Below are positions 633-54,089 of a DNA stretch of 64,000 nt, in pieces. The first letter of the stretch is position 1, and the number at the start of each line of letters is the position of its first letter. A program made the translations under genes and the position numbers. A model generated the notes under the pieces. The model was not told the DNA's origin, did not search any database, and worked only from the letters and a program-made list of their open reading frames with translations. The DNA comes from an uncultured virus (IMG/VR IMGVR_UViG_3300025010_002040) (taxonomy: Duplodnaviria > Heunggongvirae > Uroviricota > Caudoviricetes), in the IMG/VR virus record IMGVR_UViG_3300025010_002040; one strand, 5' to 3'.

Positions 633-772
633 GATAACTTTTCCTCTGACCGATGATGACTTAATCTTACATAAAATCTCATACTGTTAAAACCTTATAA
701 AAATTATAACATATATATTTTTAAATAGAAAACCTCAAAAAAATAGAGGTGGTTGAATATAGGTTTGAAACA

Positions 773-878
773 AGATAATGCCAAACGGTACTTGTATGCG
801 GAATATTACCATAACCTAGTGATATCTGGGAAGCTTTTCTATATGATGGTAATCCAAGTACCTTATAGGCATTTATCT
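773..878 (-). ncRNA. Putative structured RNA: long imperfect hairpin just 3' of the RNase III gene (copy 1)
   Basis: Nested inverted repeats AGATAATGCC/GGCATTTATCT, GGTACTTG/CAAGTACC, ATTACCAT/ATGGTAAT; conserved at 52575-52688. Confidence 0.55.
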
Positions 879-882
879 AAAA

Positions 883-1698
883 TTATTCTGCTTCTGGTTC
901 AATACCAAAGAAGTCACACAAAACTAGATAAGCGGCATACCTCTTAGCACCTTTCTTTGATTTAGATAGTGCTGTTTTTGTAATAGACCAGCTTCTAACA
1001 TAGCAAGTGCTTGACCACCAATACTCACCATCGTCATAGACTTGTTCATCAGGAATATCGTACTGTGGTATGGAGCATCTGCCACTTTCAGCCAATTCTT
1101 TAAGTGTGCTGACTGCATTATCCTGTGTTAGATTTTCTTTTAGCTCATCCATGCCATCTTCTACATCTTGTAATTGATCATCAATTTGAAGCATGAATTC
1201 CACAGAGTTTTGGAGCTCATCTGGATCCCAATCACTGTCAATTGCTATGGCACCCAGAATGGCTTCGAATAAATCAGCTTTAACTTTTTCTTGATTCCAT
1301 ACTTGATTATCAATATCACTTTGTCCCAAGTACATCATTGATTTGAAACCTAACTCTTCAATTCTTCTAGCAAGATTCGAATTGCTTACGATTTCCTTTT
1401 TCAGCTCAGTAAAGTCTTGCTCGTTTCGATGAGCTTTAATGCAGTACTCATCATTATCTTCTTGCTCATCATACGTATCCATTTGAGACTTGAAAAATCC
1501 GTATCTTTCAGCGATTACTTTGGTCACATAAAAATCCAATACTCGATCGCCTAAGAACTCTAAAACCTCATTGTTCTCCCCACCATATTCAGCTGAATAA
1601 GACTTTCTTGTGAAAGCTTGAAGCAGCAAATCTGTGTTCTTAAAATAGTAACTACATTTTCTTTGTACATCATCGATGTGTTCTTTTAAATCCTTCAT
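883..1698 (-). CDS. Ribonuclease III family protein (RNase III domain plus C-terminal dsRBD), prophage copy 1
   Basis: NEVLEFLGDRVL and KADLFEAILGAI motifs with four acidic catalytic residues; dsRBD-like SKSKKGAKRYAA. Start moved to MKDLKE at 1698, which follows an AGGAGG RBS. Confidence 0.92.
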   Translation of the reverse strand: MKDLKEHIDDVQRKCSYYFKNTDLLLQAFTRKSYSAEYGGENNEVLEFLGDRVLDFYVTKVIAERYGFFKSQMDTYDEQEDNDEYCIKAHRNEQDFTELKKEIVSNSNLARRIEELGFKSMMYLGQSDIDNQVWNQEKVKADLFEAILGAIAIDSDWDPDELQNSVEFMLQIDDQLQDVEDGMDELKENLTQDNAVSTLKELAESGRCSIPQYDIPDEQVYDDGEYWWSSTCYVRSWSITKTALSKSKKGAKRYAAYLVLCDFFGIEPEAE

Positions 1699-1920
1699 TT
1701 GATTTCCTCCTATTATTTGTCCGAGAAAATAAAAAAGACCTCCCGATAGAATAGGCATACTCCTGCATAGGTACACTTATCCCTTTAATAGGTCTTATTA
1801 AATCAAAATAGTACTTGTAAGACTTTAAGCATATTAACTCCCGCTTCCCGAAAGAGTTAATATACAAATCGCGTTACTCAATTACTTTGAGGAAATAATT
1901 CCCTTACCTTATCGGACTAC
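1699..1920 (-). ncRNA. Putative ~220-nt structured leader/ncRNA of the RNase III gene (copy 1)
   Basis: Closing stem 1900-1917/1719-1736, long rod 1803-1890, hairpin 1735-1796 followed by a U tract; one substitution versus copy 2. Confidence 0.65.
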
Positions 1921-1924
1921 CTTT

Positions 1925-1953
1925 AATATACAATAAAAATTGTTTTTTGTCTA
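1925..1953 (-). promoter_or_regulatory. Sigma70-type promoter of the RNase III cassette
   Basis: TAGACA-17 bp-TATATT; both boxes are kept in copy 2 although the spacer has diverged. Confidence 0.7.
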
Positions 1954-2491: not shown

Positions 2492-2804
2492 TTTCTTTGC
2501 CTCCTAAGCGTTTATAAATATTGACTTGTGAATCTTCAAGTCTGGATACACGATGTTCCAGGACATTGACGTCTTTCTTTAACGATTTAATATCTTGTGC
2601 ATGCATCTCCAGCAGGTTGAGCATCTTGATGTTTTGTTTCTCTATGGTTTGGAGATTAACAAGAATCTCATCGTTATTCGTTTTGTTTTTCTGTTCTTGA
2701 CGATTGAACTGCTTGATCGTTGTCATAATAACAACCACCATTGTCACAATCCAATACACCAAGTTTTCCATTCTAAATAGACTGAGTAAGTTATCCCAGT
2801 TCAT
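2478..2804 (-). CDS. Putative holin-like membrane coiled-coil protein
   Basis: N-terminal TM plus coiled coil (LEHRVSRLE); lysis-module position. Confidence 0.55.
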   Translation of the reverse strand: MNWDNLLSLFRMENLVYWIVTMVVVIMTTIKQFNRQEQKNKTNNDEILVNLQTIEKQNIKMLNLLEMHAQDIKSLKKDVNVLEHRVSRLEDSQVNIYKRLGGKENDNT

Positions 2805-3504
2805 TACTAATCACCCGATCTTTGTATTTTTCTATGTAGGTAAGTGCTTCTCTCAACAACGGCATGTATTCTAAGCCTTTGCTATTGTTCCAGTTCTTTT
2901 TGTATTCAATCATGTACGTGTTCCAGGGCTCATGAACAACATGCCTATATTTTCCTGATTCATCCACATGATCCAAAATGCCACGAACTCTAAAAATGTG
3001 ATAATGCGACTTCTGAGGTTCTGGATAGTTGATTCGCATTTTATAATGTTCAACAAAACTTTCCAGAAATAAACCTAGTCTACTTGTTAAATCTATATTT
3101 TTGTATGCTTCATACTCATCTCGATAATCCTCATTCAGGTAAATCAGATTGTCTTTTTCCGATAAAACCTCATCGATATAAGCACGATCATAGAGCGGAA
3201 CTGTTGGATCTAGATTTTGTTTTTTGAGATAGATATCTTTTCCATAAGCAAACACATCTAATGTTCCTAAACTTAAATGCACATTCCCTTTGAATCCATC
3301 AAGTACTACAGTCACATCATCATCGCTGTTCTCATCGTTTAATCCAAAGGCTAAAGAACCACAGTAATAGATAAACATCACTGTGGTATTTGGGAATATT
3401 CCTTGAACGATTTCAAGGATACTTTCGTTAGATTGGATCTTCTGTTTCACTTGGAGCATTGATTTGTGGTTCAACCACTTCAAAATCATCGATAGAATCG
3501 TCAA
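2791..3504 (-). CDS. Pol-beta superfamily nucleotidyltransferase-like protein (start possibly nearer 3459)
   Basis: YCGSLAFGLNDENSDDDV (GS...DxD) plus a third Asp in LDVFAY; homolog at 54943-55596. Confidence 0.7.
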   Translation of the reverse strand: MTILSMILKWLNHKSMLQVKQKIQSNESILEIVQGIFPNTTVMFIYYCGSLAFGLNDENSDDDVTVVLDGFKGNVHLSLGTLDVFAYGKDIYLKKQNLDPTVPLYDRAYIDEVLSEKDNLIYLNEDYRDEYEAYKNIDLTSRLGLFLESFVEHYKMRINYPEPQKSHYHIFRVRGILDHVDESGKYRHVVHEPWNTYMIEYKKNWNNSKGLEYMPLLREALTYIEKYKDRVISNELG

Positions 3505-39714: not shown

Positions 39715-41433
39715 ATGCAAAACAAACAAGTCAGAGTCATACAACCAAAACCTGTGTTCGATTTATCAGGAACCATCCCCAAGAACCTCAAAAAGCGCGT
39801 GTGTGCCTACGTTCGAGTGTCCACCGATAATGAGGAACAGAAAACGAGTTACATCGCTCAAACCGACGAATACACCGAAAGGATTCAAAATAACCCTGAA
39901 TGGACATTCTGTGGTATCTATGCAGACGAGGGCATCAGCGGAACTTCCACCAAGCACAGAAAACAGTTCAATAATATGATGGATGCTGCAAAGCGTGGTG
40001 AAATCGATTTGATCATGACGAAGTCAATCTCACGATTCGCTAGAAATACAGTTGATTGCTTAAACTACATCAGAGAGATGAGAGCAATCAATGTTGAGAT
40101 CTTCTTTGAAAAAGAAAACATCTACTCCTCAGATCCAAAAGTGGACTTCTTATTAACCATCATGTCATCCATCGCCCAAGAGGAAGCAAGAAACGTGAGC
40201 GAGAACGTCAAATGGAATGTTCAAAAGCGTTTCAACAATAGCGTTCCAATTGTGAATCACAATCGGTTCTTAGGTTATACCAAAGACAAACGAGGTGGTA
40301 ACCTAATCGTTGTTCCTGAAGAAGCTAAAATCGTCCGTGAAATCTTCCAAATGTATGTGAGTGGCATCGGTCCGATGAAGATTGCTAAACATATGGAATC
40401 CATAGGAGCAACTACAGGTGCTGGTGCAACCAAATGGAGTATGTCCACAGTCGCAGTTATTCTTAAGAACGAAAAATACATCGGCGATTTGGTTCAACAG
40501 AAAACACTGACGGTTGATTACCTTTCACATAAGAAAGTGAAGAATAAAGAACTCGCTCCAATGTATCATACCGAGAATGCACACGAAGCAATCATCGATA
40601 GAGAGACTTTTCTCCTTGCTCAAAGGATCAGAGAGGATCGAAGCAAGGTGAAAGTTGGTAAGGATAAGAACCTGGCCAAATACAATGTCACTTATCCATT
40701 CTCAGCATTTATCGTTTGTTCTGAATGTGGACGAACCTTGAAAAGACGCTATTGGAATTACGGTACACCAGCTCAAAGAGTTATGCAACAATGTGGTGGT
40801 TACATCGACGGTAAAGCCCACTGTAAGGCTAAAGCTACTTACCAAGAGATGATTGAAGGTGCGACTGTGAAAATGCTCAACGAGGTGTTTTTACAGGAAA
40901 AGGATATCATCCCAAACATACAGAAAATCATCAAGTCGACCATTCGAGTTAGCGATGTTGAAATCAAGATTCAAAAGCTTCAAACACAAGGCGATGAGCT
41001 TGAAAGAATGATATCAAACCTAATTGATGTTCAAGTGAAGAATCCTAATCTTTCCCAGGAGGATTTCAACAGCAAATACCAATCACTGACCTTGCAGCTT
41101 CACAATAACAAAACCGAGATCAGAAAACTTGAAGGTGAGTACTTAACGAACTACGATACGCGATCAAGACTTGCAAAGATAGAAACCACACTCAACAATT
41201 TACTAGAACCAATCCAGGAAGTTGATAGTGATACATTACGTTCATTCATTTACAAGATCATCTCAGTGACACCTGAAAACATTGTCTTCTGTGTAGCAGG
41301 AACCAAGAATTATACCGATAAAGAATTCTCAGAAAATAGACATACTTTTGAAGCACTAAAACCTTTAGCAACAGGTACTTATCATAACGAAAAGTACGGT
41401 AAAATTATGAATTACAAAGTCGTTATTATCTAA
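39715..41433 (+). CDS. Large serine recombinase (integrase)
   Basis: AYVRVST, DEGISG and KSISRFARN motifs; recombinase domain; CSECG Zn ribbon; coiled coil. Confidence 0.95.
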   Translation: MQNKQVRVIQPKPVFDLSGTIPKNLKKRVCAYVRVSTDNEEQKTSYIAQTDEYTERIQNNPEWTFCGIYADEGISGTSTKHRKQFNNMMDAAKRGEIDLIMTKSISRFARNTVDCLNYIREMRAINVEIFFEKENIYSSDPKVDFLLTIMSSIAQEEARNVSENVKWNVQKRFNNSVPIVNHNRFLGYTKDKRGGNLIVVPEEAKIVREIFQMYVSGIGPMKIAKHMESIGATTGAGATKWSMSTVAVILKNEKYIGDLVQQKTLTVDYLSHKKVKNKELAPMYHTENAHEAIIDRETFLLAQRIREDRSKVKVGKDKNLAKYNVTYPFSAFIVCSECGRTLKRRYWNYGTPAQRVMQQCGGYIDGKAHCKAKATYQEMIEGATVKMLNEVFLQEKDIIPNIQKIIKSTIRVSDVEIKIQKLQTQGDELERMISNLIDVQVKNPNLSQEDFNSKYQSLTLQLHNNKTEIRKLEGEYLTNYDTRSRLAKIETTLNNLLEPIQEVDSDTLRSFIYKIISVTPENIVFCVAGTKNYTDKEFSENRHTFEALKPLATGTYHNEKYGKIMNYKVVII

Positions 41434-41446
41434 TTTTTTTTGAAGC

Positions 41447-41528
41447 AAAATATGTTGCGAAGATGAATAAAATCTGACTCATCGAAAAAAAGCCATCGAA
41501 ACCTATGAAGGTCATCTGATGGCTTTTA
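41447..41528. repeat. End-of-element motif with bidirectional terminator-like hairpin, repeated at 48855-48989
   Basis: AAAATATGTTGCG and A7GCCATCG..ACCTATGAAGGTCATCTGATGGCT. Confidence 0.7.
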
Positions 41529-41607
41529 TTGACAAGAATGTCAAGCATTGTGTATTTCGGAACTTTCATTACCAGTGTTTAGATTGCTATGTGTAGATAA
41601 GCAGTTA

Positions 41608-42813
41608 TCAGTCTTTATGCATTTTAACTGTATTTAACTTTTCTGATATCAAATCAATGTAGTTTTTGTATAATTCATTGACGATTTGATTCCACGATAG
41701 ATATAGATCTCTGTAAGCATTATTACATATTTCCCTGTGTGATATAGCTTTACTAAATATGTCAATTATTTTTTCTGCATACATTTCAGGTGCATTGCTT
41801 GAGAGGTATCCATTTACTCCATCACAAATAGTGCTAGCTGTTACTGCTTTTTCTATAAATAAGGTAGGTGTATGCTGACTAGCTGCTTCAACCTGAACCA
41901 ATGATGAAGCATCATATAATGATGGCAATAAGAAAAGGTCTGCTACTTTGTAGTAAGATGATAATTCAATTCGATCTTTAATACGACCTGTAAATATTGT
42001 GTTCTCATTAAGATTATTTAAAGTGACTCTTTTCTTCATAAAACCTTCATGTATTCCAGATCCAACAAAGATCATTTTAAATTTGAACTCTCTTTTCTTA
42101 AGAATCGTCAAAGAATCGATTAAAAAATCTACATTTTTGATTTTGTCTAAGCGGCCAACATATAAAAGCACTTTATCCTCATGCTGAATGTGATGCATCT
42201 TTCTCAAATCATTAGCCATCTGTTCATCTTCCAAGGGCAATAAGTCAGTCCCATTGCGGATGACTATAGGAAGACTTTTCGCACCATACTCGTAAAATAC
42301 TCTTGCAATTTCATCGTTTACTGCAATGAGTCGATCGCATCTGTTTAATCTCCTCATCAATTCACCGATTGCGAGTTCACTGATAAATGCATTTTTACTA
42401 CGCTCGTAGAAATCTTTTTTATACTGACTGTGCAATGTTGCGATAAGTGGAATATTATGCCTTTTTGCATAATTAATCCCATAATTACCTACTGAAAATG
42501 GACTGTGAATATGTATGATATCAAATTTTATTGCTTTCATGCTCTTTTCAAAAAAAGTATCAAAACTTGGAAACGAAAGCCTGTAATCCATCAGTGGCAA
42601 TTTTATAGACTTTGTCCGTATAACCTTATATGCAAATTTATCAATGTTCTCTATTTCTCCATAATTAGGTGAAAAAACATAGACATCTGCGGTCAAAGAT
42701 AGCTTTTTTGCATAGTTATCAACGACATTGACCACTCCATCAATCATTGGAAAAAATACATCTGTAAAAATTCCTATTACTAATCTTTGCTTCATATTCA
42801 CCTGCTTCATCAT
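41608..42813 (-). CDS. GT4 glycosyltransferase, diacylglycerol glucosyltransferase-like
   Basis: IGIFTDVFFPMIDGV, IHIHSPF, YVGRLDKIKN and LVQVEAA motifs. Confidence 0.85.
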   Translation of the reverse strand: MMKQVNMKQRLVIGIFTDVFFPMIDGVVNVVDNYAKKLSLTADVYVFSPNYGEIENIDKFAYKVIRTKSIKLPLMDYRLSFPSFDTFFEKSMKAIKFDIIHIHSPFSVGNYGINYAKRHNIPLIATLHSQYKKDFYERSKNAFISELAIGELMRRLNRCDRLIAVNDEIARVFYEYGAKSLPIVIRNGTDLLPLEDEQMANDLRKMHHIQHEDKVLLYVGRLDKIKNVDFLIDSLTILKKREFKFKMIFVGSGIHEGFMKKRVTLNNLNENTIFTGRIKDRIELSSYYKVADLFLLPSLYDASSLVQVEAASQHTPTLFIEKAVTASTICDGVNGYLSSNAPEMYAEKIIDIFSKAISHREICNNAYRDLYLSWNQIVNELYKNYIDLISEKLNTVKMHKD

Positions 42814-42868
42814 ATCTAAACTCGAATGTTTAAACCAATTGTCGATTCAAGCATTTCAACAACAGCTT

Positions 42869-43684
42869 TCATTCACTTTTTTTGTCTTTGAAATAATTCA
42901 TGACATCGTCATATCCATAATGATAAATTCTTCTTGAGTGCATAGATGTAAAATCAAGTATTTTACCTAAACTTTTTGTTGATCGTATATCATGTATTCT
43001 AACATTCTTATACTTCTTTTTTTTCGATCGCAATGAGGATAATGCTGAAACAGTGACACAGATGATTTCATCACAACCGATATCAATTAGTGGTTGAACT
43101 GGGGTGTTATCGAAATACCCTCCATCCCTATATTTTTTATTGTTAGTGATAACAGGTGGAAACACTATGGGTATTGAGCACGAGGCAACAAGCGTATTGA
43201 TTTGCATATTTTTATCTAGCTCTTTAAGTGGTACATACGATACTTGTGATTCTCTATGAACGTAATGCTTAATGGTAGACTTCAACAAGTCAGTAAATCC
43301 TTTATCAGTATCACCGGTTTCAGAGACTGCAATATAGATATCTTTATTTGTCAATAGTTCAAAATTCAAATACTCATTTAAATACTCATTCAACTTATTA
43401 ATTGATAACAAACCATTATCAATTAATCTTAATCTCTCGTTCTTGATGGTCTTTATAATTGCAGTTTTTTCTCCCAGTGGCGCTTCTGGAACGTTGAACC
43501 AAATATCCATTGCTAAATCAAGTGAACCAATGGCTGCAAAAGTAACATTAACCGCTCCAATCGAAGCTCCAGAAAACGCACTCGCTTTTTGTAAAATGCC
43601 CAGTTCTTCAAGCGCTTTTAGCGCACCGATTTGATATGCTCCTCTTGCGCCTCCACCAGATAAACAAATTCCTAATTTATTCAC
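42869..43684 (-). CDS. Patatin-like phospholipase
   Basis: SGGGARG, GASIG and DGG motifs. Confidence 0.92.
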   Translation of the reverse strand: MNKLGICLSGGGARGAYQIGALKALEELGILQKASAFSGASIGAVNVTFAAIGSLDLAMDIWFNVPEAPLGEKTAIIKTIKNERLRLIDNGLLSINKLNEYLNEYLNFELLTNKDIYIAVSETGDTDKGFTDLLKSTIKHYVHRESQVSYVPLKELDKNMQINTLVASCSIPIVFPPVITNNKKYRDGGYFDNTPVQPLIDIGCDEIICVTVSALSSLRSKKKKYKNVRIHDIRSTKSLGKILDFTSMHSRRIYHYGYDDVMNYFKDKKSE

Positions 43685-43871
43685 ATTTTTTTCCTTTCAC
43701 AAACAATAGGTTTTCATCTCAAAATCTATACAACTTCTTGCGAGTTTGTTTATCAAAATGGATTGAAGTAATCAATAATTGAAGTCAGTATAGCTATTAA
43801 ATATTAGTGCTGATCCCACTAAAAATTGTACGATTGATCTATAATCCGCCGTCGATCTACTGGTCAATTCA

Positions 43872-44411
43872 TTACAAGGTGTTATTAAATGTGACAAGAT
43901 TATATATAATCTCAGTCATTTCGTCAACGGATTCAGACTTTGAATTTTTAATCCATTCAACCACAACAGAAAACAGTGCACCTTCAAAAAACCGTGCTTT
44001 ATATTTATCTTCCTTTTCAATATCAAATACTTTTTTCAATAATTTTGAAATTTCAGCTTCAAAGGACTGGAAGATAAGATATTCTAGGCTGTTGGTGATG
44101 AGTACTTCGATTAAATCGGAATACTCATTGAAAACTATGACCATTTTCTTAATCGAATGGAAAATTGGATTGTCATTATTCATGTCCGTTTCAAGATCCA
44201 ACATTAAACGTTCATATATTTTTCGTCCTTGATCGAGCAATATATCTTCTTTCGAATCAAAGTTGCGGTAAAATGTCGGTCTTGCAACACCTGCTTCTTT
44301 TGTAATATCATCAATAGATATCTTTCTAAAAGCATTTTTTTTAAGTAAGAACATGAGTGCATTATATATCCACTCTTTGCTTCTAGTAACCTGTATGTTT
44401 TCTTTCATCAA
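43872..44411 (-). CDS. TetR/AcrR family regulator
   Basis: ISIDDITKEAGVARPTFYRNF. Confidence 0.92.
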   Translation of the reverse strand: MMKENIQVTRSKEWIYNALMFLLKKNAFRKISIDDITKEAGVARPTFYRNFDSKEDILLDQGRKIYERLMLDLETDMNNDNPIFHSIKKMVIVFNEYSDLIEVLITNSLEYLIFQSFEAEISKLLKKVFDIEKEDKYKARFFEGALFSVVVEWIKNSKSESVDEMTEIIYNLVTFNNTL

Positions 44412-45286
44412 TTTTTCCTACCTACCTCTAAATGATCACCAATAAAAATCCCAATGCCTATCACGTCAGGACCGACATGTGCACCAACCACCGGAGTCGA
44501 CGGTGATTCATACAGGTTTTCTAATCCGAGATTTTCTTTAATCATACTAACGAAATGAGCTTTCAGGTTAGGGTTCGCTGTATAGATTAAATATGCCTGA
44601 TATGGACGATGATCGACATATTCTTCGACCAACGATGTGATTGAAGATAGGACGGATTTGATGGTTCGTTTGTTGCCAATTGAAACGATTTCCCCAGATT
44701 CTTGCACCTGTAACACCGGTTTGATATCTAAAAGTTTGCCTATGTAGCCCTTCGCATTGCTCAAGCGTCCATTTTTAACCAGATAGGTTAAAGAGTTTAC
44801 TGCAAAATAGATGGTGTTCAAATGTCTCATGTCACTGAGTTTGTTTTCGATTTCTTCTAATGAAAAATCTTTGTCGATCATCTTTTTAGCTTCCAAAGCG
44901 AAAATACCTTCCGAAAAGCAGACCGTCTTCGTATCAAAGACCTTAATCTTTATTTTCCCTTCGAACTCCTTAGCAGCCATGATGCATGAGTTATAAGTTC
45001 CGCTCATCTTAGCCGATATGGTCACTACAAAAATCTCTTCAACACCTTCATCTAAGAATTTTTGAAAGATGTTCATCACATCGCCAACAGATGGTTGGCT
45101 GGTCTTTGGTAATAGTTCTTTATCGTTTTTAAGCATATCATAAAATTGATCTGCCTTTAGTGTTAATCCGTCCTCATACTCTTGACCTTTGATATTGATC
45201 TTAATACGCAATATCTCAATGCCATGTTCAAATGGATAATAATCTAATCCGCCTGTTGAAGTGTCAATCACGATTCTTTTTCTCAT
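44408..45286 (-). CDS. DegV/FakB family fatty-acid binding protein
   Basis: PKTSQPS, ISAKMSGT, LVKNGRLS and GAHVGP motifs. Confidence 0.92.
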   Translation of the reverse strand: MRKRIVIDTSTGGLDYYPFEHGIEILRIKINIKGQEYEDGLTLKADQFYDMLKNDKELLPKTSQPSVGDVMNIFQKFLDEGVEEIFVVTISAKMSGTYNSCIMAAKEFEGKIKIKVFDTKTVCFSEGIFALEAKKMIDKDFSLEEIENKLSDMRHLNTIYFAVNSLTYLVKNGRLSNAKGYIGKLLDIKPVLQVQESGEIVSIGNKRTIKSVLSSITSLVEEYVDHRPYQAYLIYTANPNLKAHFVSMIKENLGLENLYESPSTPVVGAHVGPDVIGIGIFIGDHLEVGRKN

Positions 45287-45972
45287 GGTTTCTCTACCTT
45301 TCTACTGCGATTCTTAATGATTCGATGACCACCAGTTTTATTCATCAGCAAACTGGATAATTCTTCAATCGTCTCGACAATGTAATCGGGATTTGAGTTT
45401 GCCAGAGCGTTTTTCGTCTCAAATCCCCATGTCACCGCGATCACTTCGATGGGAATTGATCGGCAAGCCAAGACATCTCGAATTTCATCACCGACGTAAA
45501 TGGCGTCCTCGGGATCATATCCATGTTTTCGAAGCAGTTTCTTAATCTTGCGTTTTTTTCCTTTCATGCTAGCCTTCCCCTCAATGAAGGAGAATGTGTT
45601 GATATCATTATTTGATAATATTTTATTGATATTTGAAACACTATTTGAAGAAACGATGGCTAATTTAACCTTGCTTTCATTCAGGTTCACTAAGAGCTCT
45701 TTCATTCCTGAGATGATCGTGCAATCATCGACAAATTCAGATGCAATATCACGCGATTCTCTGTACAATTTAGGCAATTTATATATCGGAACACCTAAAT
45801 CGAACAACCGCTTTAAACCTGGCTTCGTTTTTAATTCTCGAATTCCATCTTTGGATAGTTGTTTTAGTTTGTATCGTTTTGAAATTCGTTCATATATGAG
45901 TTCAGACTGATCGACATTGTTGCTCAAAGTTCCATCCAAATCAAAGATAATTATTTTTTTCACTGATTGCAT
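45283..45972 (-). CDS. HAD-family hydrolase
   Basis: FDLDGTL, VSSN and YVGDEIRD motifs. Confidence 0.9.
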   Translation of the reverse strand: MQSVKKIIIFDLDGTLSNNVDQSELIYERISKRYKLKQLSKDGIRELKTKPGLKRLFDLGVPIYKLPKLYRESRDIASEFVDDCTIISGMKELLVNLNESKVKLAIVSSNSVSNINKILSNNDINTFSFIEGKASMKGKKRKIKKLLRKHGYDPEDAIYVGDEIRDVLACRSIPIEVIAVTWGFETKNALANSNPDYIVETIEELSSLLMNKTGGHRIIKNRSRKVEKP

Positions 45973-46005
45973 CCCTCCTTCATGATATCCTACTATGCAC
46001 GATCC

Positions 46006-46893
46006 TTAAACTGGAATATCTTTTTTTGTAAACCAAAGCGTGCCTACTGTAAAGCACATCGCTGAAATGAGTAACAGAATTGCAAAGTGCATGATGTAGG
46101 TGGATGACCCATCCAAGATTGAGGTCGTATTGAACAGCGTGATCATCGTGATGTTATTAAAGTATCCCATGGGCTCGATACCAATCCCCATGTTCATGAA
46201 GAGATCAGAACCAAACAACCCTAATATTTTAGATATGAAAAATACTAACGCTACACCTCCACCTAAAGAGATCGAATGCTTCGTATAGTTGAAAACCGCA
46301 GAAAACATGAACGTAATCGATCCCATGGCAACCGTGAATATGAATAGACCTAGGTTGAGCAACAGAACGTGGTCAATCGCTAATGAATTTTCGATGGTTA
46401 ATGCTAAGATAACATCCACGATGGTTGTTAAGATAAACATCGCTACTAAAGACATGATGAAAAAGAACATTTGCGTGAACGCTATCTTGGATCGCTTGAT
46501 CGAAGTGGATAAAACAAACGCCATGGATCCTCGATCAATTTGACTGGCAAACAATTTATTCCCAACTATAACCGTGTAGACCAAGGGCATCAGCACCGAC
46601 ACAACAGGATAAAAAATTGAGCTAACCAGAACATTTGAATCCATCGATGCAATGCCTGTCAAGATGTCAGGATTCAAACCGATCGCAGTAAAGAGTCCGT
46701 CGAGTGACAGCCCTGCGGATTCTAAGGCGATGATATATGGGATCAATATGTTTGGGTCTGCATCACCTGAAACCGTGACTAACCCCATAGCAAATTTGAT
46801 AACGACGTAAAGCAAAATCAATGTCAGGGTTGTTGCTGTCCAAAGACCCCAATTCGCTTTGATGGATTGTTTCAATAATGGTATACTGATCAT
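46006..46893 (-). CDS. ABC-2 type permease
   Basis: About six TM helices; IDRGSMAFVLST motif. Confidence 0.85.
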   Translation of the reverse strand: MISIPLLKQSIKANWGLWTATTLTLILLYVVIKFAMGLVTVSGDADPNILIPYIIALESAGLSLDGLFTAIGLNPDILTGIASMDSNVLVSSIFYPVVSVLMPLVYTVIVGNKLFASQIDRGSMAFVLSTSIKRSKIAFTQMFFFIMSLVAMFILTTIVDVILALTIENSLAIDHVLLLNLGLFIFTVAMGSITFMFSAVFNYTKHSISLGGGVALVFFISKILGLFGSDLFMNMGIGIEPMGYFNNITMITLFNTTSILDGSSTYIMHFAILLLISAMCFTVGTLWFTKKDIPV

Positions 46894-47789
46894 TTTTCGT
46901 TGTCCTCACTTATTTTTTTTAAAAAATACTTTTTGAGCGTGTATTTTACTTCTTTGATATATTTTAAATTGAATTGCGCTAATACCTTCATAAATTCGTT
47001 TACTTGAGCGTCTTTGATGTCGACGGTTACTTGCATATATTTATCATTTTTTGACGTTATGTAGAGATTCAAATTCACATAATTTTGATAATCTCTTTCG
47101 TCTTCAAATCCAACTTTGTATGTCTTTACTTCGTTGTGACGAATCTTTTTCATATCCACGATATCTAATACTTTCCCGTTATGCAAAAGTGCGACACGAT
47201 CACATGTTTTTTCTACCTCTTCAAACACATGACTGCTCATAAATATGGTAGCACCTCTCTGTCTTGCCTCCATCAATACATCTACGAATGTTTCTCGCAT
47301 GAGTGGATCAAGTCCGGTTGAAGGCTCATCCAGGATTAAAATATCCGGTTCAGCCATAAACGCTTGTACGATGGCCGTTTTTTGCTTCATGCCTTTGCTC
47401 ATATGCTTTAGATTTGCTGTGGTGTCTAGCTTAAATTTATTGATTAAATACTTGGCGTATTCCATGGTTTTTAATCCCATCATTTCTGCTTGACTCTTCA
47501 AGAACGCATCCCCATCACCTATGTCGGGAAAAGCTATTTCGCCTGGCACATATCCAATATGTCTCATGATTTGAGTTGTGTCATAGTTCACCTCATGATC
47601 CATTATGTAGACACTTCCGCTATCCGGTCTGATAAAACCCATCATGTTTCTGATCGTTGTTGTTTTACCACTTCCGTTAGTTCCAACAAAACCAAAGATT
47701 TCACCTTTTTTCACTTCAAGATCGATGTTGAAAATACCTCGTGATAATCCATAATCTTTTGTCAGGTTTCTAATTTCAATCATGCTCAT
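46890..47789 (-). CDS. ABC transporter ATP-binding protein
   Basis: GTNGSGKT, MSKGM and LDEP motifs. Confidence 0.95.
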   Translation of the reverse strand: MSMIEIRNLTKDYGLSRGIFNIDLEVKKGEIFGFVGTNGSGKTTTIRNMMGFIRPDSGSVYIMDHEVNYDTTQIMRHIGYVPGEIAFPDIGDGDAFLKSQAEMMGLKTMEYAKYLINKFKLDTTANLKHMSKGMKQKTAIVQAFMAEPDILILDEPSTGLDPLMRETFVDVLMEARQRGATIFMSSHVFEEVEKTCDRVALLHNGKVLDIVDMKKIRHNEVKTYKVGFEDERDYQNYVNLNLYITSKNDKYMQVTVDIKDAQVNEFMKVLAQFNLKYIKEVKYTLKKYFLKKISEDNEK

Positions 47790-48691
47790 AGGAATGACTC
47801 AACCTCGCTATCTTTATAGTAATTTAGGAAATAGTCTTCGAGCGTAAATTGTGACTCTGAAAAATATTTCACCTGATTGTCAGAGACTTCCTTAATCAAA
47901 CGATTTATCTCTTTATCGTTGATTGCTACTCTCACCTTCTTTTTAGTTTTATCGCTATAGATAATGTTCAAATCCGATTTCATAAATTGCTCATATCCTT
48001 TATCTTCCAAAAACTCAATTTTAAAGACTTTGTTTTCGTTATTTCTAATGATATCAGTCTCAATCGTTGAAATGATTTTACCTTCCTTGATAATCGACAA
48101 TCGATCACAACAGGCATCCACTTCCTCAAATATATGAGTTGAAAGAAGGATTGTTTTCCCTCTTTTCTTCTCGGTTTTGATTAACTCGATAAATTTATTT
48201 TGCATGATAGGATCTAAGCCGCTGGTTGGTTCATCGAGTATCAAAATTTTGGGATCCGACATGAAGGCTGATACAATTGCCAGCTTTCTCTTATCCCCTA
48301 TGGACATCTTTTTCATGCTCTGATTTGGATTCAATTCAAATAAATCCAGTAAGTAAGTAACCCTAGACTCTTCTGCATGCCGCATTTTTTTCATCATATC
48401 GATGAACTCAAGTCCACTCAGTCCGTCTGGTAGTGCAACCTCACCAGGAATATAACCGACTTCGCCCAATATCGAAGAGTAATCTTTCCAACAATCATTG
48501 CTGTTAATGGATACAGTTCCTTTATCGGGTTGAGAAAAACCCATGAGCATTCTTATTGTCGTGGTTTTCCCCGCACCATTGGGACCAAGAAAACCGAATA
48601 CTTCACCCTCTTTAACTTCAAAGGATATATCAAAAACCCCCCGATTATATCCGAAATCTTTTGTCAGATTTTTCACTTCTATCATAAGCAT
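47786..48691 (-). CDS. ABC transporter ATP-binding protein
   Basis: GPNGAGKT, MSIGD and LDEP motifs. Confidence 0.95.
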   Translation of the reverse strand: MLMIEVKNLTKDFGYNRGVFDISFEVKEGEVFGFLGPNGAGKTTTIRMLMGFSQPDKGTVSINSNDCWKDYSSILGEVGYIPGEVALPDGLSGLEFIDMMKKMRHAEESRVTYLLDLFELNPNQSMKKMSIGDKRKLAIVSAFMSDPKILILDEPTSGLDPIMQNKFIELIKTEKKRGKTILLSTHIFEEVDACCDRLSIIKEGKIISTIETDIIRNNENKVFKIEFLEDKGYEQFMKSDLNIIYSDKTKKKVRVAINDKEINRLIKEVSDNQVKYFSESQFTLEDYFLNYYKDSEVESFL

Positions 48692-48849
48692 ATTCTCCTA
48701 TCGTCATATTATTATCTGAACACAACTGGATGTTGTCATATCATTAATTTCAATTATAGCACTGACATGTTACATTTGCAACACTTTATACAATTGTTAC
48801 ATTTTTTGCCGTTTTTTTTATTGTATACTTGAATTTTTAAGTACTTTTT

Positions 48850-49415
48850 CAAGAAAAATATGTTGCGTAAGACAACCATTCAGACAAAAAAGGCCATTTT
48901 TTAACAAAAAATATGTTCCCACAATGGACGAAATTTGCACATATAGACAAAAAAAGCCATCGGATACCTATGAAGGTCATCTGATGGCTGATTTTTATAA
49001 ATTTGAGTTAAAAATAGAGTGTTGTCAAGTATGTGTCAAGTATATAACAAGTGTTATTTTAATGAAAGCAACGTGATAGACTCTACATGCGTTGAAAAAA
49101 CCATATTGCTTGCAAAATCAACCTTGTGTGTATTAAAGTAACATTAAAAAGGGCCAAATTATGTTTCCACTTACATGGTTAGATAAGTGGGTAAAATACC
49201 AAAGCAACATATTTTTTGGTATTTACTTTGAAATTGTCTTGTGGGAAACACTATCATTTATCTTTTTACACCAAGACTAATCTATAGGGTTTAAATCCTC
49301 TTTACTGGACTGTCTAAGGTTGTGAGGTTTAATACAATTTTAACACCCCTACCTTCAAATCGTGTAAATAGTTTAGCACCCTAGTGTCATATCGTGTAAT
49401 TTTTTAGCACCCCTA
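48850..49415. repeat. Repeat-rich non-coding region, possible relic element end or recombination site
   Basis: Copy of the 41447-41528 motifs; inverted AAAATATGTTGC/GCAACATATTTT; 11-bp-phased CAAGT; three ~32-bp-spaced TTTA(G/A)CACCC. Confidence 0.6.
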
Positions 49416-49477
49416 ATTCATGGATTAATAAAGGATTTTTATAAATAGTTGTTGGATTTGCCCTTTACAGCCCAACC

Positions 49478-50659
49478 CTAGATTATGAAACCAAGGATTG
49501 CTGCTAACAATACGATTAATGGTGCAGGTATCTTTTTAGATAATAACAACATAGCCGATACAACCACAACACCATACACGACTAAATCAACTGGAAGTTT
49601 CATGCTTGAAGTGATTGCAGTCATCAATATTAAACTTGCAGCCGTGACGGTAACCCCTCTTAGAAAGTGCTTCATGAGAGTCATTTTTCTAGACTGTCTC
49701 CAGATTGGATAAACAAAGTAAACCAAAAGGATCCCTGGTAAGAATATACTTAATCCACCTATCATGCCTGCAAGAAATGAATATCCAGATCCTGCAAATG
49801 AACGAGAACTTACAAAAGCTGCAAAACTAAATAATGGTCCAGGTATCGCTTGATCGATTGCATAGCCCGATAGAAAATCAGTCAGCGTAATCAATGATTG
49901 CGATTGAACTAAATCTTGAATCATCAGCGGTACCACAATTTGACCTCCGCCAATGACCGAATATCCATATCGGTAAAATGATGTGAACAGTGTCACCCAA
50001 GGTGCAGAAACCCAATTCCTTATCCCTTCATTCAGCAATGCTATGCCTATGATAACACCCAACAATACCCATCGAGGTCTAAGTTTTTCAGTGGTCTTGA
50101 TTCTGTCTTTAAAATGAGGAAACAGGTATATAAATCCTCCAATGATTAACATACTAGGAACAATCCATATGGAATAATCCACAATCAGTAATCCAAGTAC
50201 AAGCATGACGATATACATTATCCAATCAGTTTTCTGCTTTAACACTTTCTTAGATAATGAATATGCTGCATAAACAATGAAAGCTACTGCAACCGCAGGA
50301 AGGTATGCAATCACCGGTTTCCAACCTTCATTATTGTCTATCAGTGTAAAAAACACACCAATCAATGCCATAACGACAATGGCTGGAAATGCCCAAACCA
50401 AAAATGTAAGTAATGCTAAGATTGGACCCCCAACATAATAGCCAATCGCGGTTATCGTTTGTGAGCTGCTAGGTCCTGGCACTAGTGCGTATAAACCAAT
50501 CATCTCGGTCAATTCTTCTTCCGTCAAGTACTTCTTTTTTTCTACCATGATAGAAGAAAACACACCATAATGTGCTTCCGGTCCGCCATATGAACCTAAT
50601 GAACACATAAACACATCCCAAAGAAAACTTGACCACTTTACTTTCTTTTTTTCACTCAT
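49478..50659 (-). CDS. chrA: Chromate ion transporter (CHR family, long chain)
   Basis: SYGGP...VPGP and IGGG...AIPGP duplicated domains. Confidence 0.9.
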   Translation of the reverse strand: MSEKKKVKWSSFLWDVFMCSLGSYGGPEAHYGVFSSIMVEKKKYLTEEELTEMIGLYALVPGPSSSQTITAIGYYVGGPILALLTFLVWAFPAIVVMALIGVFFTLIDNNEGWKPVIAYLPAVAVAFIVYAAYSLSKKVLKQKTDWIMYIVMLVLGLLIVDYSIWIVPSMLIIGGFIYLFPHFKDRIKTTEKLRPRWVLLGVIIGIALLNEGIRNWVSAPWVTLFTSFYRYGYSVIGGGQIVVPLMIQDLVQSQSLITLTDFLSGYAIDQAIPGPLFSFAAFVSSRSFAGSGYSFLAGMIGGLSIFLPGILLVYFVYPIWRQSRKMTLMKHFLRGVTVTAASLILMTAITSSMKLPVDLVVYGVVVVSAMLLLSKKIPAPLIVLLAAILGFII

Positions 50660-50660
50660 A

Positions 50661-51878
50661 CTAGAGAACCTCCGTCTTATGATCTTTTTTGAGTAAATAA
50701 ATACTTAAAAACAATACAGCAAGCAATTCTACAGTTGTAGAGAATAATACAACAAAAAGAACATTAATTTCATAGAAAACACCTATTAATAAAGATCCGA
50801 TGAACCACGCTGACCCAAAAACTGTATAAAAAATACCGTATGCAGTTGCTCTTTTTTCTTTAGATACCATCGTTGAAACAACAGCTTTTAGGATAGATTC
50901 TTGTGCGCCCATACCTATGCCCCATAAGATGACACCAATGATGATGCCCGTCAAACTTGTAGATAAGAAAAATATTGGTGCCATAAATAACGTGATAGCA
51001 ATTGCCCAAATCAATGAAACAATTCCTTTTTTATCAAAGTAATGTCCAAAAATGAGTGCTGCTATTGCATCGACTCCCATAGCAAGTGCATAGAGAAGGG
51101 GTATATAAGTTATGTCTATTAAAGATTGGTCGCTCATATGAAAAGCTAAAACAGGATAATCAATAAATCCAAATGCGATTAAAGCTACCGCTATCATATA
51201 GAATTTAAATGCTTTGTTTCCTCTGATGCTTTGCTTGCTCTTTGTCGTTTCTAATTCATCCGGATGTGGATATTTATATCTTGATATCGCCAATATGATG
51301 AGCGTTAAAATGGCAAATATTCCAAGTAAACCGAATGCTAATTGATACCCGTCTAATTCACTACCCTTGTTTAAGGATAAAACAACAAATACAAAAATCG
51401 GTCCTAAAAAAGCTCCAAACTGATCCATAGCTTCTTGAATAGCAAATGATTTTCCTGCGCCTAAATGGGATGCAGTAAATGAAGTCAAGGCACTCTTGGC
51501 TGGCGCTCTGATTCCTTTACCAACACGTTCTAGTAAAATCAGTATGATTGCAACTTCCCAAATGGATGCATCGACAAACATGAGAAGTGGTATCACTAAC
51601 AAATTCAATGCATACCCAATAAACATCATTAACCAATACTTCTTTGTTTTATCCGCAATCGGACCTGTTACTAATCTAAAAGCTTGTCCAATGAACTCGC
51701 CTAACCCTGAAGTGAAAGAGATAACCAGTGCTGAAGCGCCTATCAAACCCAAATAGGAACCGTAGATACTTCGAGCACCTTCGTGTGTAAAGTCAGATAA
51801 TAAACTGATAATTCCTAAAAGCAAAAGAAAGAGGAAAGCGTTTCTTTTCATCGAGTTGTTCTTATTCATGTTGACCAC
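50661..51878 (-). CDS. MFS transporter
   Basis: About 12 TM helices; ERVGKGIRAPAK motif. Confidence 0.9.
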   Translation of the reverse strand: MVNMNKNNSMKRNAFLFLLLLGIISLLSDFTHEGARSIYGSYLGLIGASALVISFTSGLGEFIGQAFRLVTGPIADKTKKYWLMMFIGYALNLLVIPLLMFVDASIWEVAIILILLERVGKGIRAPAKSALTSFTASHLGAGKSFAIQEAMDQFGAFLGPIFVFVVLSLNKGSELDGYQLAFGLLGIFAILTLIILAISRYKYPHPDELETTKSKQSIRGNKAFKFYMIAVALIAFGFIDYPVLAFHMSDQSLIDITYIPLLYALAMGVDAIAALIFGHYFDKKGIVSLIWAIAITLFMAPIFFLSTSLTGIIIGVILWGIGMGAQESILKAVVSTMVSKEKRATAYGIFYTVFGSAWFIGSLLIGVFYEINVLFVVLFSTTVELLAVLFLSIYLLKKDHKTEVL

Positions 51879-52194
51879 CTATTTTCTTTTGATGAATTTC
51901 ATGGCTCAATTCAGTAATTTTTTCATTTAGCTGTTGGAATAAACCTATCCCTTTATCTGTAATCGAGTAGTATTTTCTCATTCTCCCAGAATCTGAATTT
52001 TCTATACATACTAATAACCCTTCATCAACCATTTCCTTTAACAAGGGATAAATATGTGACGGACCAACTTGATAGCCATGATGTTGAAGTTCTTCAATCA
52101 TCCATGAACCATAAATAGGGTCAATTGATGCATGATATAAAATATGAATACTTAGAAAACTCAAGTATATTTTTTTTTCATATCGACTTTCCAT
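51862..52194 (-). CDS. PadR family regulator
   Basis: YGSWMIEEL...IYPLL...RKYYSITDKG. Confidence 0.9.
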   Translation of the reverse strand: MESRYEKKIYLSFLSIHILYHASIDPIYGSWMIEELQHHGYQVGPSHIYPLLKEMVDEGLLVCIENSDSGRMRKYYSITDKGIGLFQQLNEKITELSHEIHQKKIGGQHE

Positions 52195-52262: not shown

Positions 52263-52574
52263 CTTTGCTCTGTCAATTATTTTGCATAAATCGTTAACTG
52301 ACAAAGTTAAGTCAGCTTGTTCATCTATTATAATTCCTAGATTTTCTAGTTCTTTTTTTATTATTTCATAGTTTTCTAGGATTAACATTTAGTCTTAACC
52401 TCATCATCAAATACCTCCGCCACAATTAAGAATATTTTACACTACATTTGTTATTAATACATTAAATTGTCCTACATTACACTTATTCCATCATAATTGA
52501 CACCTAATGTTTTAGGAAAATTTTTGAATTTATTAATATAAATTAAAATCAAAACTCTTTTTATATAGTCATGC

Positions 52575-52688
52575 TTTAAAATAATGCCAATTGGCACTTG
52601 TATGCGGAATATCACCATAACCTAGTATTATCTGGGAAGCTTTTCTATATCACGGGAATCCAAGTACCTTATAGGCAGTTATCTTAAA
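52575..52688 (-). ncRNA. Putative structured RNA 3' of the RNase III gene (copy 2)
   Basis: Same nested inverted repeats as 773-878; several changes give G-U pairs on the minus strand. Confidence 0.55.
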
Positions 52689-53504
52689 TTATTCATCTTC
52701 TGGCTCTATGCCAAAATAATCACATAGAACAAGATAAGTGGCATACTTCTTAGCACCTTTTTTTGATGAAGAGAGTGCTGTTTTTTGAATTGACCAGCTT
52801 CGAACATAGCAGGTGCATGACCACCAATACTCACCATCATCATACACTTGTTCATCAGGAATATCGTATTGTGGTATGGAACATCTCCCACTTTCAGCTA
52901 ATTCTTTTAGTGTGCTGACTGCATTATCCTGAGTTAAGTTTTCTTTAAGCTCATCCATGCCATCTTCTACATCTTGAAGTTGATCATCAATTTGAAGCAT
53001 GAATTCTACTGAATTTTGAAGCTCATCTGGATCCCAATCACTGTCAATTGCGATTGCACCAAGTATAGCTTCGAATAAATCAGCTTTAACTTTTTCTTGA
53101 GTCCATACCTTGTTATCGATATCGCTTTGTCCCAAGTACATCATTGACTTGAAACCTAACTCTTCAATCCTTCTAGCAAGATTCGAATTGCTTACAATTT
53201 CCTTTTTCAGTTCAGTAAAGTCTTGCTCGTTTCGATGAGCCTTAATGCAATATTCATCGTTATCTTCTTGCTCATAATATGTATCCGTTTGAGATTTGAA
53301 AAATCCATATCTTTCAGCGATGACTTTGGTTACATAAAAATCCAAAACTCTATCGCCTAAGAACTCTAAAACCTCATTGTTTTCCCCACCAAATTCAGCT
53401 GAATAAGACTTTCTTGTGAAAGCTTGAAGCAACAAATCTGTGTTCTTAAAATAGTAACTACATTTTCTTTGTACATCATCGATGTGTTCTTTTAAATCCT
53501 TCAT
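52689..53504 (-). CDS. Ribonuclease III family protein, prophage copy 2
   Basis: Same motifs as copy 1; 12 aa differences in 271 by manual comparison. Confidence 0.92.
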   Translation of the reverse strand: MKDLKEHIDDVQRKCSYYFKNTDLLLQAFTRKSYSAEFGGENNEVLEFLGDRVLDFYVTKVIAERYGFFKSQTDTYYEQEDNDEYCIKAHRNEQDFTELKKEIVSNSNLARRIEELGFKSMMYLGQSDIDNKVWTQEKVKADLFEAILGAIAIDSDWDPDELQNSVEFMLQIDDQLQDVEDGMDELKENLTQDNAVSTLKELAESGRCSIPQYDIPDEQVYDDGEYWWSCTCYVRSWSIQKTALSSSKKGAKKYATYLVLCDYFGIEPEDE

Positions 53505-53726
53505 TTGATTTCCTCCTATTATTTGTCCGAGAAAATAAAAAAGACCTCCCGATAGAATAGGCATACTCCTGCATAGGTACACTTATCCCTTTAATAGGTC
53601 TTATTAAATCAAAATAGTACTTGTAAGACTTTAAGCATATTAACTCCCGCTTCCCGAAAGAGTTAATATACAAATCGCGTTACTCAATTACTTTGAGGAA
53701 ATAATTCCCTTACCTTATCAGACTAC
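53505..53726 (-). ncRNA. Putative structured leader/ncRNA of the RNase III gene (copy 2)
   Basis: Identical to 1699-1920 except at position 53720. Confidence 0.65.
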
Positions 53727-53803
53727 CTTTAATATACAATAAAAATGTCCATTTGTCTACATCTCTATATTGAAAAAAGCCTCGTTGTTGAGGCTGTTTA
53801 ACG

Positions 53804-53956
53804 TTAAATGATAATTTCTCGTCCATTTTTAAACTTGAACTTAATCTTATTGTCTTTGTTTACGACCGCTTCGTTTACCATCGTATTCCAAAGAATTGGT
53901 TCAAACTCTTGGATGAATGATTGCTTGTGCTTGATCTATTTAACGAAATATTTCAT
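53804..53956 (-). pseudogene. C-terminal remnant of a large serine recombinase
   Basis: Translates as MKYFVK*IKHKQSFIQEFEPILWNTMVNEAVVNKDNKIKFKFKNGREIII*, the typical LSR C-terminus, with an internal stop. Confidence 0.65.
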
Positions 53957-54089
53957 CGCTCCTCAATGGTTAATGGCATCTTTTTTTGATTTTGCCGGTA
54001 TAAAATGAAAAAACCTCATAAAAGGATAATTTTCCTAATACGAGGTCTAAGGTAGTGAACAATTAAATGGCATAAATATAAGTCAAAAT

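Follow-up and report, generated by a model that had tools for sequence, protein, structure and literature searches.

A structured RNA leader of an accessory RNase III gene in prophages, with a probable autoregulatory role

Two prophage ends and their accessory RNase III gene

The stretch of DNA analysed here (hereafter the window) is a 64,000-nucleotide record from an uncultured virus of the Caudoviricetes (IMG/VR IMGVR_UViG_3300025010_002040), which comprises two prophages with host genes between them. Tail, holin and lysis-type genes extend as far as each of two copies of an untranslated leader, while a large serine recombinase is encoded at 39715-41433 and host-type metabolic and transport genes occupy 41608-52194. 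The last gene at one end of both prophages encodes an RNase III, and homology, whether between copies A and B or with related elements, ends ~100-125 nt beyond its stop codon. The set formed by promoter, leader and gene occurs twice, 51,806 nt apart, the second set spanning 52689-53759 (Table 1).

The translation of copy A shows the RNase III signature motifs EFLGD and DLFEAILGA and matches the catalytic-domain profiles PF14622 at 1.4e-17 and PF00636 at 2.1e-15. Against TIGR02191 the protein scores 103.6 bits, under the cut-off of 166.25, and it is therefore not the housekeeping equivalog; a canonical rnc gene, scoring 201-229 bits, was present elsewhere in all four checked genomes that carry the accessory gene. 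The gene at the prophage end encodes a divergent, accessory form of RNase III and not the housekeeping enzyme. The host records are those of Acholeplasmataceae, 'Tenericutes' and other Bacillota MAGs, and the module composed of promoter, leader and RNase III gene behaves as a self-contained 'moron' at the prophage end.

Some further observations concern the surroundings of these modules. Between the holin genes and the copy B promoter (53807-53959, minus strand) lies what is left of a large serine recombinase gene, namely its final 51 codons; at a related locus (L002), the leader is preceded by the complete gene (522 aa), to which the remnant is 96% identical. Beyond the RNase III coding sequence, the 3' UTR (765-890, minus strand; 52563-52689 in copy B) holds a second long irregular hairpin, in which GGUACUUGGAUUACCAU pairs with AUGGUAAUAUUCC...CAAGUACC (-27.5 kcal/mol, z -2.64) and which is present only in the window's group of elements; its end coincides with the stop of between-element homology (...GCATACAAGTA), probably the prophage end. 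Searches with the host flanks for an unoccupied site matched only a contig of the same organism, and the prophage end could not be fixed in this way. In prophage 1, a 237-aa ORF situated among lysis and tail-fibre genes (2791-3504, minus strand) gave weak nucleotidyltransferase-domain matches (PF01909, 0.0012) and no PADLOC or PHROG assignment. Two 51-nt copies (41485-41535 and 48950-49000, 76% identical), able to form a hairpin of AAAAAAGCCATC...GATGGCTTTT, are located 3' of host genes and are probably related bidirectional terminators.

Architecture and conservation of the leader

The leader is ~222 nt long, runs from 1920 to 1699 on the minus strand (RNA nt 1 corresponds to window position 1920) and ends at the ribosome-binding site (RBS) and the ATG (1698) of the 271-aa protein. 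A promoter-like site at 1953-1925 would set the transcription start just before GUCCGA (5-7 nt). The minimum-free-energy (MFE) fold of the 226-nt RNA (1695-1920, minus strand) reaches -60.9 kcal/mol, to be compared with a mean of -45.9 kcal/mol (sd 4.3) for 200 dinucleotide shuffles (z -3.51), only one of which folded as well. It corresponds to a closed four-helix structure featuring a closing stem P1, a hairpin P2, a long rod P3 and a terminator-type hairpin P4 followed by a U tract, with P1 being extended by purine/U-tract pairing of nt 11-18 with nt 188-195. The preliminary description had claimed a closed multi-stem fold from the letters of the window, and every helix that it named was recovered, the GAUUU/AAGUC segment only partly. 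Close to its 5' end, the leader carries an SD-like run of purines (AAGGAAGG). The outer stem of P4, AAGACCU/AGGUCUU, contains G+C and is followed by the U run UUUUUUAUUUU, as in intrinsic terminators; this hairpin was absent from the list of a simple scanner because the latter limits loops to 3-8 nt. As regards a possible leader peptide, the short ORFs of the leader were not conserved between groups in the alignment inspected by eye.

Table 1. Coordinates of the features of the two modules in the window (RNA numbering as in the text).
Feature	Position	Strand	Remarks
Promoter, copy A	1925..1953	minus	TAGACA, 17-nt spacer, TATATT; 10/12 consensus matches
P1 5' strand GUCCGA, RNA nt 4-9	1912..1917	minus	pairs with nt 197-202; CCGAU is also the P1' 5' strand; holds the copy difference (1914)
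Purine-rich segment (AAGGUAAG) and P2 hairpin (P2 = nt 19-30)	1891..1910	minus	P2 3' strand UUUCCUC complementary to SD
P3, 88-nt irregular rod, nt 31-118	1803..1890	minus	covarying apical helix, GNRA-like loop
P4 terminator-type hairpin	1735..1796	minus	outer stem AAGACCU (nt 125-131)/AGGUCUU (nt 180-186), inner irregular hairpin
Internal AUCGG within P4	1743-1747	minus	possible partner of the 5' strand
U tract UUUUUUAUUUU running into anti-SD UUUUCUC	1723..1736	minus	U run invariant in 62/62 aligned leaders
P1 3' strand UCGGAC, RNA nt 197-202	1719..1724	minus	89.3% paired; GUUAGA/UCUAAC in L110
SD GGAGG (1706-1710) and ATG (1696-1698) of RNase III gene	1696..1710	minus	SD placed from RNA numbering
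Accessory RNase III gene, copy A	883..1698	minus	271 aa; profile scores in text
Accessory RNase III gene, copy B	52689..53504	minus	comparison with copy A in text
Promoter and leader, copy B	53505..53759 (leader 53726-53505)	minus	offset +51806 from copy A; one transcribed difference, at 53720

A single transcribed position, RNA nt 7, distinguishes leaders A and B (C at 1914, T at 53720); there the C-G pair of P1 becomes U-G, so that pairing is preserved as had been claimed. Over the coding sequences, by contrast, 71 of 816 nt differ, corresponding to 52 synonymous and 12 non-synonymous codon differences. The preliminary description had set the conserved leader against these many synonymous changes; both observations hold, but the argument carries little weight since the first 72 nt of the coding sequence are also identical, the first difference falling at nt 73. 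Given that the identical block reaches into synonymous sites, recombination between the two prophages can explain the near-identity of the leaders, and the caveat about gene conversion that accompanied the original claim was justified. The contrast between leader and coding sequence within the window alone is weak evidence; the strong evidence for a structure, as read from aligned relatives, is comparative.

Relatives were gathered by protein-guided scans at 60-100% identity, which yielded 11 then 15 viral-contig loci, 17 species-genome loci and 80 kept of 153 metagenome loci. Loci with a near-full-length match, together with the two window copies, provided 103 upstream regions (87 distinct), and at least 260 nt were available for 80 of the 87. 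A motif filter passed 62 leaders (59 distinct), belonging to RNase III homologues of 62-97% protein identity, into the alignment. When a covariance model of the P2+P3 core was run on the 18 regions excluded by the filter, the core was found in 8 and was absent in 10, and the leader core is hence carried by 70 of the 80 regions. The ten core-less regions are mostly decayed copies: the 3' ~111 nt of the leader remain in L014, L016, L053 and L019 (the genes of L016 and L019 being also frameshifted), shorter 3' leader parts remain in L103 and L078, the RNase III genes of L061, L062 and L101 are 5'-truncated or frameshifted, and the gene of L077, which is intact, is preceded by the end of a different inserted element.

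The fold of the window copy was projected onto the 59 distinct leaders, where standard pairs occupy 86.1% of 3949 cells (44.6-55.4% with partners slid), the covariation score is 0.260 (at most 0.111 in slid controls, and reached by none of 500 shuffles) and 25 of 71 pairs are changed on both sides (10-16 in slid controls), these being counts that derive from a single starting structure and from related sequences and that do not represent independent events. Covariation among distant homologues is thus found, and 47 of the 59 leaders belong to groups only ~70% identical to the window leader. Double changes affect 9 of 15 pairs at the rod apex, 3 of 7 in the terminator stem and 2 of 6 in P1, the latter both originating from L110, in which GUCCGA/UCGGAC is replaced by GUUAGA/UCUAAC; in the lower rod, 10 of 17 pairs are invariant. 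The rod measures 85-88 nt, with 28-35 predicted bp, and folds as a single hairpin in 59 of 59 leaders, its apical loop containing GCGA, GCAA or GGAA in nearly all of them. Independent MFE folds recovered the P1/P2/P3/P4 architecture in 8 of 10 representatives, and all 10, taken from different groups, folded better than their shuffles (z from -2.98 to -5.37), as the window copy did. Two outcomes that the preliminary description had named as refuting it, a folding energy within the range of shuffled controls and an absence of covariation in distant homologues, were thus looked for and did not occur. In the leader groups inspected, a -10 box is situated 6-8 nt upstream of GUCCGA, a conserved position that argues against a transcription start near the RBS.

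These data bear directly on the reading that the RNA has no function, under which the identity of the copies would reflect recent gene conversion and the conservation a DNA-level role, either as an operator (palindrome CTCAA-N5-TTGAG) or as a recombination site. The identical block extending 72 nt into the coding sequence, the existence of mosaic recombinants such as L005 and the occurrence of the palindrome in nearly all leaders all fit this reading. It is nevertheless largely refuted by the covariation, for which slid controls were far lower; moreover, L041 and L042 break the palindrome yet keep the rod pairing, the breakpoints of truncated copies are scattered (leader nt ~112, 116, 127 and 176; CDS residues 5-9, 24-38, 68 and 81-115) with no single crossover site, and a complete genome (G003) that has only the 3' half of the leader contains no 5' half elsewhere. 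We regard such an absence of RNA function as very improbable and have high confidence that the leader is a real, selected, cis-linked structured RNA.

We also considered an attachment site splitting the leader, with the promoter and 5' half on the phage and the 3' half and gene on the host. This candidate was ruled out by the same scattered breakpoints; the content of G003 speaks against it too, and no inverted-repeat signal above background was detected between candidate ends (best 15/22, for a background mean of 14.3 and maximum of 17).

The linkage of the element to its gene was examined with a motif-first search, in which the element was found only before this RNase III family, in 13 of 13 evaluable viral contigs (6 more being cut by contig ends) and in all five instances recovered from the phylum, where 4 of the 401 genomes sampled carry it. 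In six of the 19 viral contigs the end falls inside the leader, which we attribute to interruption of the assembly at a repeated sequence and not to biology; the closest MAG contig likewise breaks off 22 nt inside the leader. At E <=1e-20, the linked RNase III family comprises 803 protein clusters; the element itself, found in metagenomes of digesters, groundwater and gut, is carried by prophages of Mycoplasmatota and Bacillota. Of 45 upstream ORFs found, 28 representatives were scanned; nine are same-strand large serine recombinases, one is a holin and the remainder are diverse or without assignment. Logan contigs from four RNA-library runs of four studies cover 1685-1895 (1722-1895 in one run) as well as the coding sequence, although their ends and strand are not readable, their depths are not comparable and DNA carry-over is possible; the stop at 1895 that they share is not a transcript end, because variants diverge there.

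Competing pairings and candidate functions

The 5' strand of the leader has a second potential partner. For its CCGAU, a complementary internal stretch AUCGG is available just upstream of the terminator 3' strand; the resulting helix, designated P1', is paired in 97.9% of cells (2.9-42.1% with partners slid) and shows a C-G to U-A change in L097; RNAalifold favours P1' over P1. Since P1' crosses the terminator stem, the two are either mutually exclusive or form a pseudoknot. For an RNA ending at the U tract, the P1' and terminator conformers are near-isoenergetic (mean -48.1 and -48.6 kcal/mol, respectively, over 59 leaders), and the P1' conformer is the MFE fold in several leaders, e.g. L086 and L076. 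A conserved antiterminator helix was searched for in the 59 leaders and not found, the pairings that exclude the terminator differing between groups.

The anti-SD sequence UUUCCUC, complementary to the SD region GAGGAAA, is present twice, namely in the P2 3' strand and directly 3' of the U tract (UUUUCUC in the window). Partition-function folding gave a mean SD unpaired probability of 0.63 for the full leader and 0.24 once the 5' part up to the rod apex was removed, and of 0.60 for native leaders and 0.18 when the first 12 nt were shuffled. Native accessibility exceeded the 5'-shuffled value by at least 0.1 in 48 of 59 leaders and was lower in 3. In the folding predictions, the RBS thus requires the 5' strand in order to be open. 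The preliminary description had attributed another task to the closing stem, that of sequestering the terminator; this part fails, because the P1 3' strand is transcribed only after the U tract and the stem cannot control termination. What P1 is predicted to do in folding models is to keep the anti-SD segment off the RBS. The AUCGG partner, the anti-SD repeat UUUCCUC, the prophage context and the wide distribution had all been missed at that stage.

The reading that we favour is a feedback loop built on RNase III cleavage, which could be assembled from these elements. Transcription would start just before GUCCGA, after which P2, the 85-88-nt GNRA-capped rod P3 and P4 with its U tract would form. 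In read-through transcripts, the 5' strand would pair with UCGGAC beyond the U tract (P1), closing a four-way junction, burying the 5' end and keeping the anti-SD (UUUUCUC/UUUCCUC) off the RBS. The encoded RNase III, or a host enzyme, would then cut the rod; the cut would separate the P1 5' strand from the mRNA, the anti-SD would be free to close the RBS, and the new 5' end would open the message to decay, resulting in negative feedback on RNase III dosage. P1' might represent the state preceding read-through or an 'off' state. The rod had been likened to an RNase III substrate from the outset, and the likeness stands, as it has substrate size in every aligned leader: its length is that of about two or more turns, i.e. 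at least 20 bp of dsRNA, and its pairing is backed by covariation.

RNase III feedback accounts for the gene linkage, the substrate-sized rod, the pairing of the 5' end and the anti-SD design. It does not account for the fixed rod length or for the extremely strong conservation of sequence in P2, in the junctions and in the lower rod; in P2, the rod base and the junctions, this conservation is far stronger than a generic dsRNA substrate would need. In the subgroup formed by L006, L007, L080 and L083, the SD is predicted to be closed even in the full leader (unpaired probability 0.02-0.03), as it is once the 5' part is removed, which in these models would also count against feedback. We rate the complete statement, a cis-acting structured 5' leader of an accessory prophage RNase III gene giving feedback by rod cleavage, as an even prospect, and RNase III feedback as the logic of the leader as slightly under even.

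The conserved nucleotides and the fixed rod length point to a specific protein or tertiary contact and thereby keep in play both a riboswitch-like attenuator and an RNA that partners the enzyme. In the former, a four-way junction closed by P1' would sense a ligand or a protein whose binding alters two equilibria, that of the terminator conformer with P1' and that of P1 with the anti-SD/SD pairing. Junction, loop and lower-rod nucleotides are invariant while distal helices covary, as would suit a conserved core with alternative helices; the pairing record of P1' and its near-equality in energy with the terminator conformer agree with this, as do the GNRA-like apical loop and the fixed rod length expected for a tertiary contact. 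Two equally conserved partners of the 5' strand next to a terminator indeed look like a riboswitch-type platform, which we count as a point against feedback. On the other hand, a single gene family was found downstream, although a riboswitch class usually has several under its control; the search for a conserved antiterminator helix among the leaders was negative, and the function of the gene suggests no ligand. Such an attenuator seems to us rather unlikely.

A separate sRNA of ~190 nt ending at the U tract could alternatively act in trans, for instance as an RNase III decoy or partner, with the enzyme made from read-through only. The promoter and the terminator-type hairpin with its invariant U run do bracket a highly structured RNA, and P1' could close its terminated form. 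This scheme is opposed by the pairing with sequence past the U tract, which is conserved and compensated in L110, and by the anti-SD logic, which involves the downstream RBS; together they imply that read-through transcripts are under selection. The element, furthermore, was never found without the gene in evaluable cases. We consider a separate sRNA improbable, while noting that it is compatible with the feedback leader and does not exclude it.

More speculatively, the leader might be a sensor RNA of a new class, a four-way junction in which the 5' strand alternates between P1', in the terminator hairpin, and P1, beyond it, reading its own RNase III activity or a ligand. The terminated form of ~190 nt, with its GNRA-capped rod of fixed length, might otherwise be a dedicated RNA partner that recruits or programs the accessory RNase III, e.g. 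towards co-encoded SymE-type toxin messages or invading RNA, an idea that takes loop-measuring RNase III enzymes, for instance yeast Rnt1p, as its model. Our expectation that either holds is low.

Known RNAs, implications and downstream cargo

Historically, RNase III of E. coli provides the example of an enzyme that cleaves a stem-loop in the leader of its own gene, rnc (rncO). By analogy, this leader would be the nearest functional relative of the prophage element, to which it is structurally unrelated. Both are structured 5' leaders of an RNase III gene with a long stem-loop of substrate size, and for both the proposed feedback involves cleavage and the loss of a protective 5' structure. The prophage leader differs by having no sequence or structure match (no Rfam family at threshold), by a four-way junction that 5'-3' pairing closes, by the presence of a terminator-type hairpin, an anti-SD and two alternative partners of the 5' strand, and by preceding an accessory paralogue instead of the housekeeping rnc. 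With the riboswitch and attenuator platforms of Bacillota it shares mutually exclusive helices for one strand, a terminator-type hairpin between promoter and RBS, and an anti-SD; unlike them, it controls one gene family and no conserved antiterminator was found. Stabilising stem-loops at the 5' terminus of Gram-positive mRNAs, exemplified by the ermC and aprE leaders and the STAB-SD element, offer a third comparison. The first bases of the prophage leader are likewise predicted to be paired and an SD-like purine run, AAGGAAGG, lies near its 5' end, whereas its pairing partner is located ~190 nt downstream and closes the whole domain.

Rfam 15, its RNase III leaders, riboswitches and known phage RNAs included, gave no match at gathering thresholds in the whole window. 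At E-values up to 10 over 1500-2100, the sole match within the leader was STnc370 (19.9 bits, for a threshold of 54), the other weak matches of this interval falling outside the leader and several of them on the upstream terminator. A distant blastn search of the leader against GenBank phages returned no match. No description of the element or of phage-encoded RNase III leaders was found in the literature searched, including the main texts of PMC10690425, PMC8040213, PMC5737381 and bioRxiv 10.64898/2026.09.22.753630 and part of the supplements of PMC10690425 and PMC8040213. In the portion of PMC8040213 covered, all seven 'RNase III' rows are 33-49-bp motifs from elsewhere (Prevotellaceae, Campylobacter, Lachnospiraceae), unlike the ~200-nt leader.

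We class the element as a structured, probably autoregulatory nuclease leader. If this is true, it would represent an undescribed family of structured RNAs, widespread in prophages of Mycoplasmatota and Bacillota, and a second, structurally unrelated solution to the self-control of RNase III, guarding an enzyme that temperate phages bring into rnc-bearing cells. Its compact design, in which one 5' strand has two partners next to a terminator and an anti-SD, would lend itself to compensatory mutagenesis. The leader also stands before probable operons whose cargo includes a gene for a SymE-family toxin, and may gate potentially harmful prophage genes.

Several genes were noted downstream of the RNase III gene in related elements. 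A gene for a SymE-family type I toxin (PF08845, 7.1e-13) begins 16 nt past the RNase III stop codon at L045:2347-2613 and L107:2347-2610, and was seen by eye in L081 and L095; it is probably co-transcribed under the RNase III leader. In one element group, the RNase III gene overlaps at its end with a gene (L008:2836-3333, also L025 and L120) for an ANT(2'')-like nucleotidyltransferase, resembling aminoglycoside-2''-adenylyltransferase (PF10706, 1.6e-26). A small Asn/Gln-rich ORF of ~55-69 aa (...GVSGKTHTQQQLNNYANQNNPNN...), which gave no Pfam match, is conserved 3' of the RNase III gene in several groups, at L006:2791-2988, L069:2331-2495, L009:2835-3005 and L075:1618-1821.

The end of another inserted element was recognized at L016:1800-1890, in the L053:1400-1390 region and at L077:680-750 by GGGGTG(T/C)(G)TAA repeats and a terminal ...AGGTCATACAACCCA. 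It borders the RNase III module at two distinct points and takes the place of the entire leader or of its 5' half; in L014 the same junction coincides exactly with the end of a tRNA-Cys gene.
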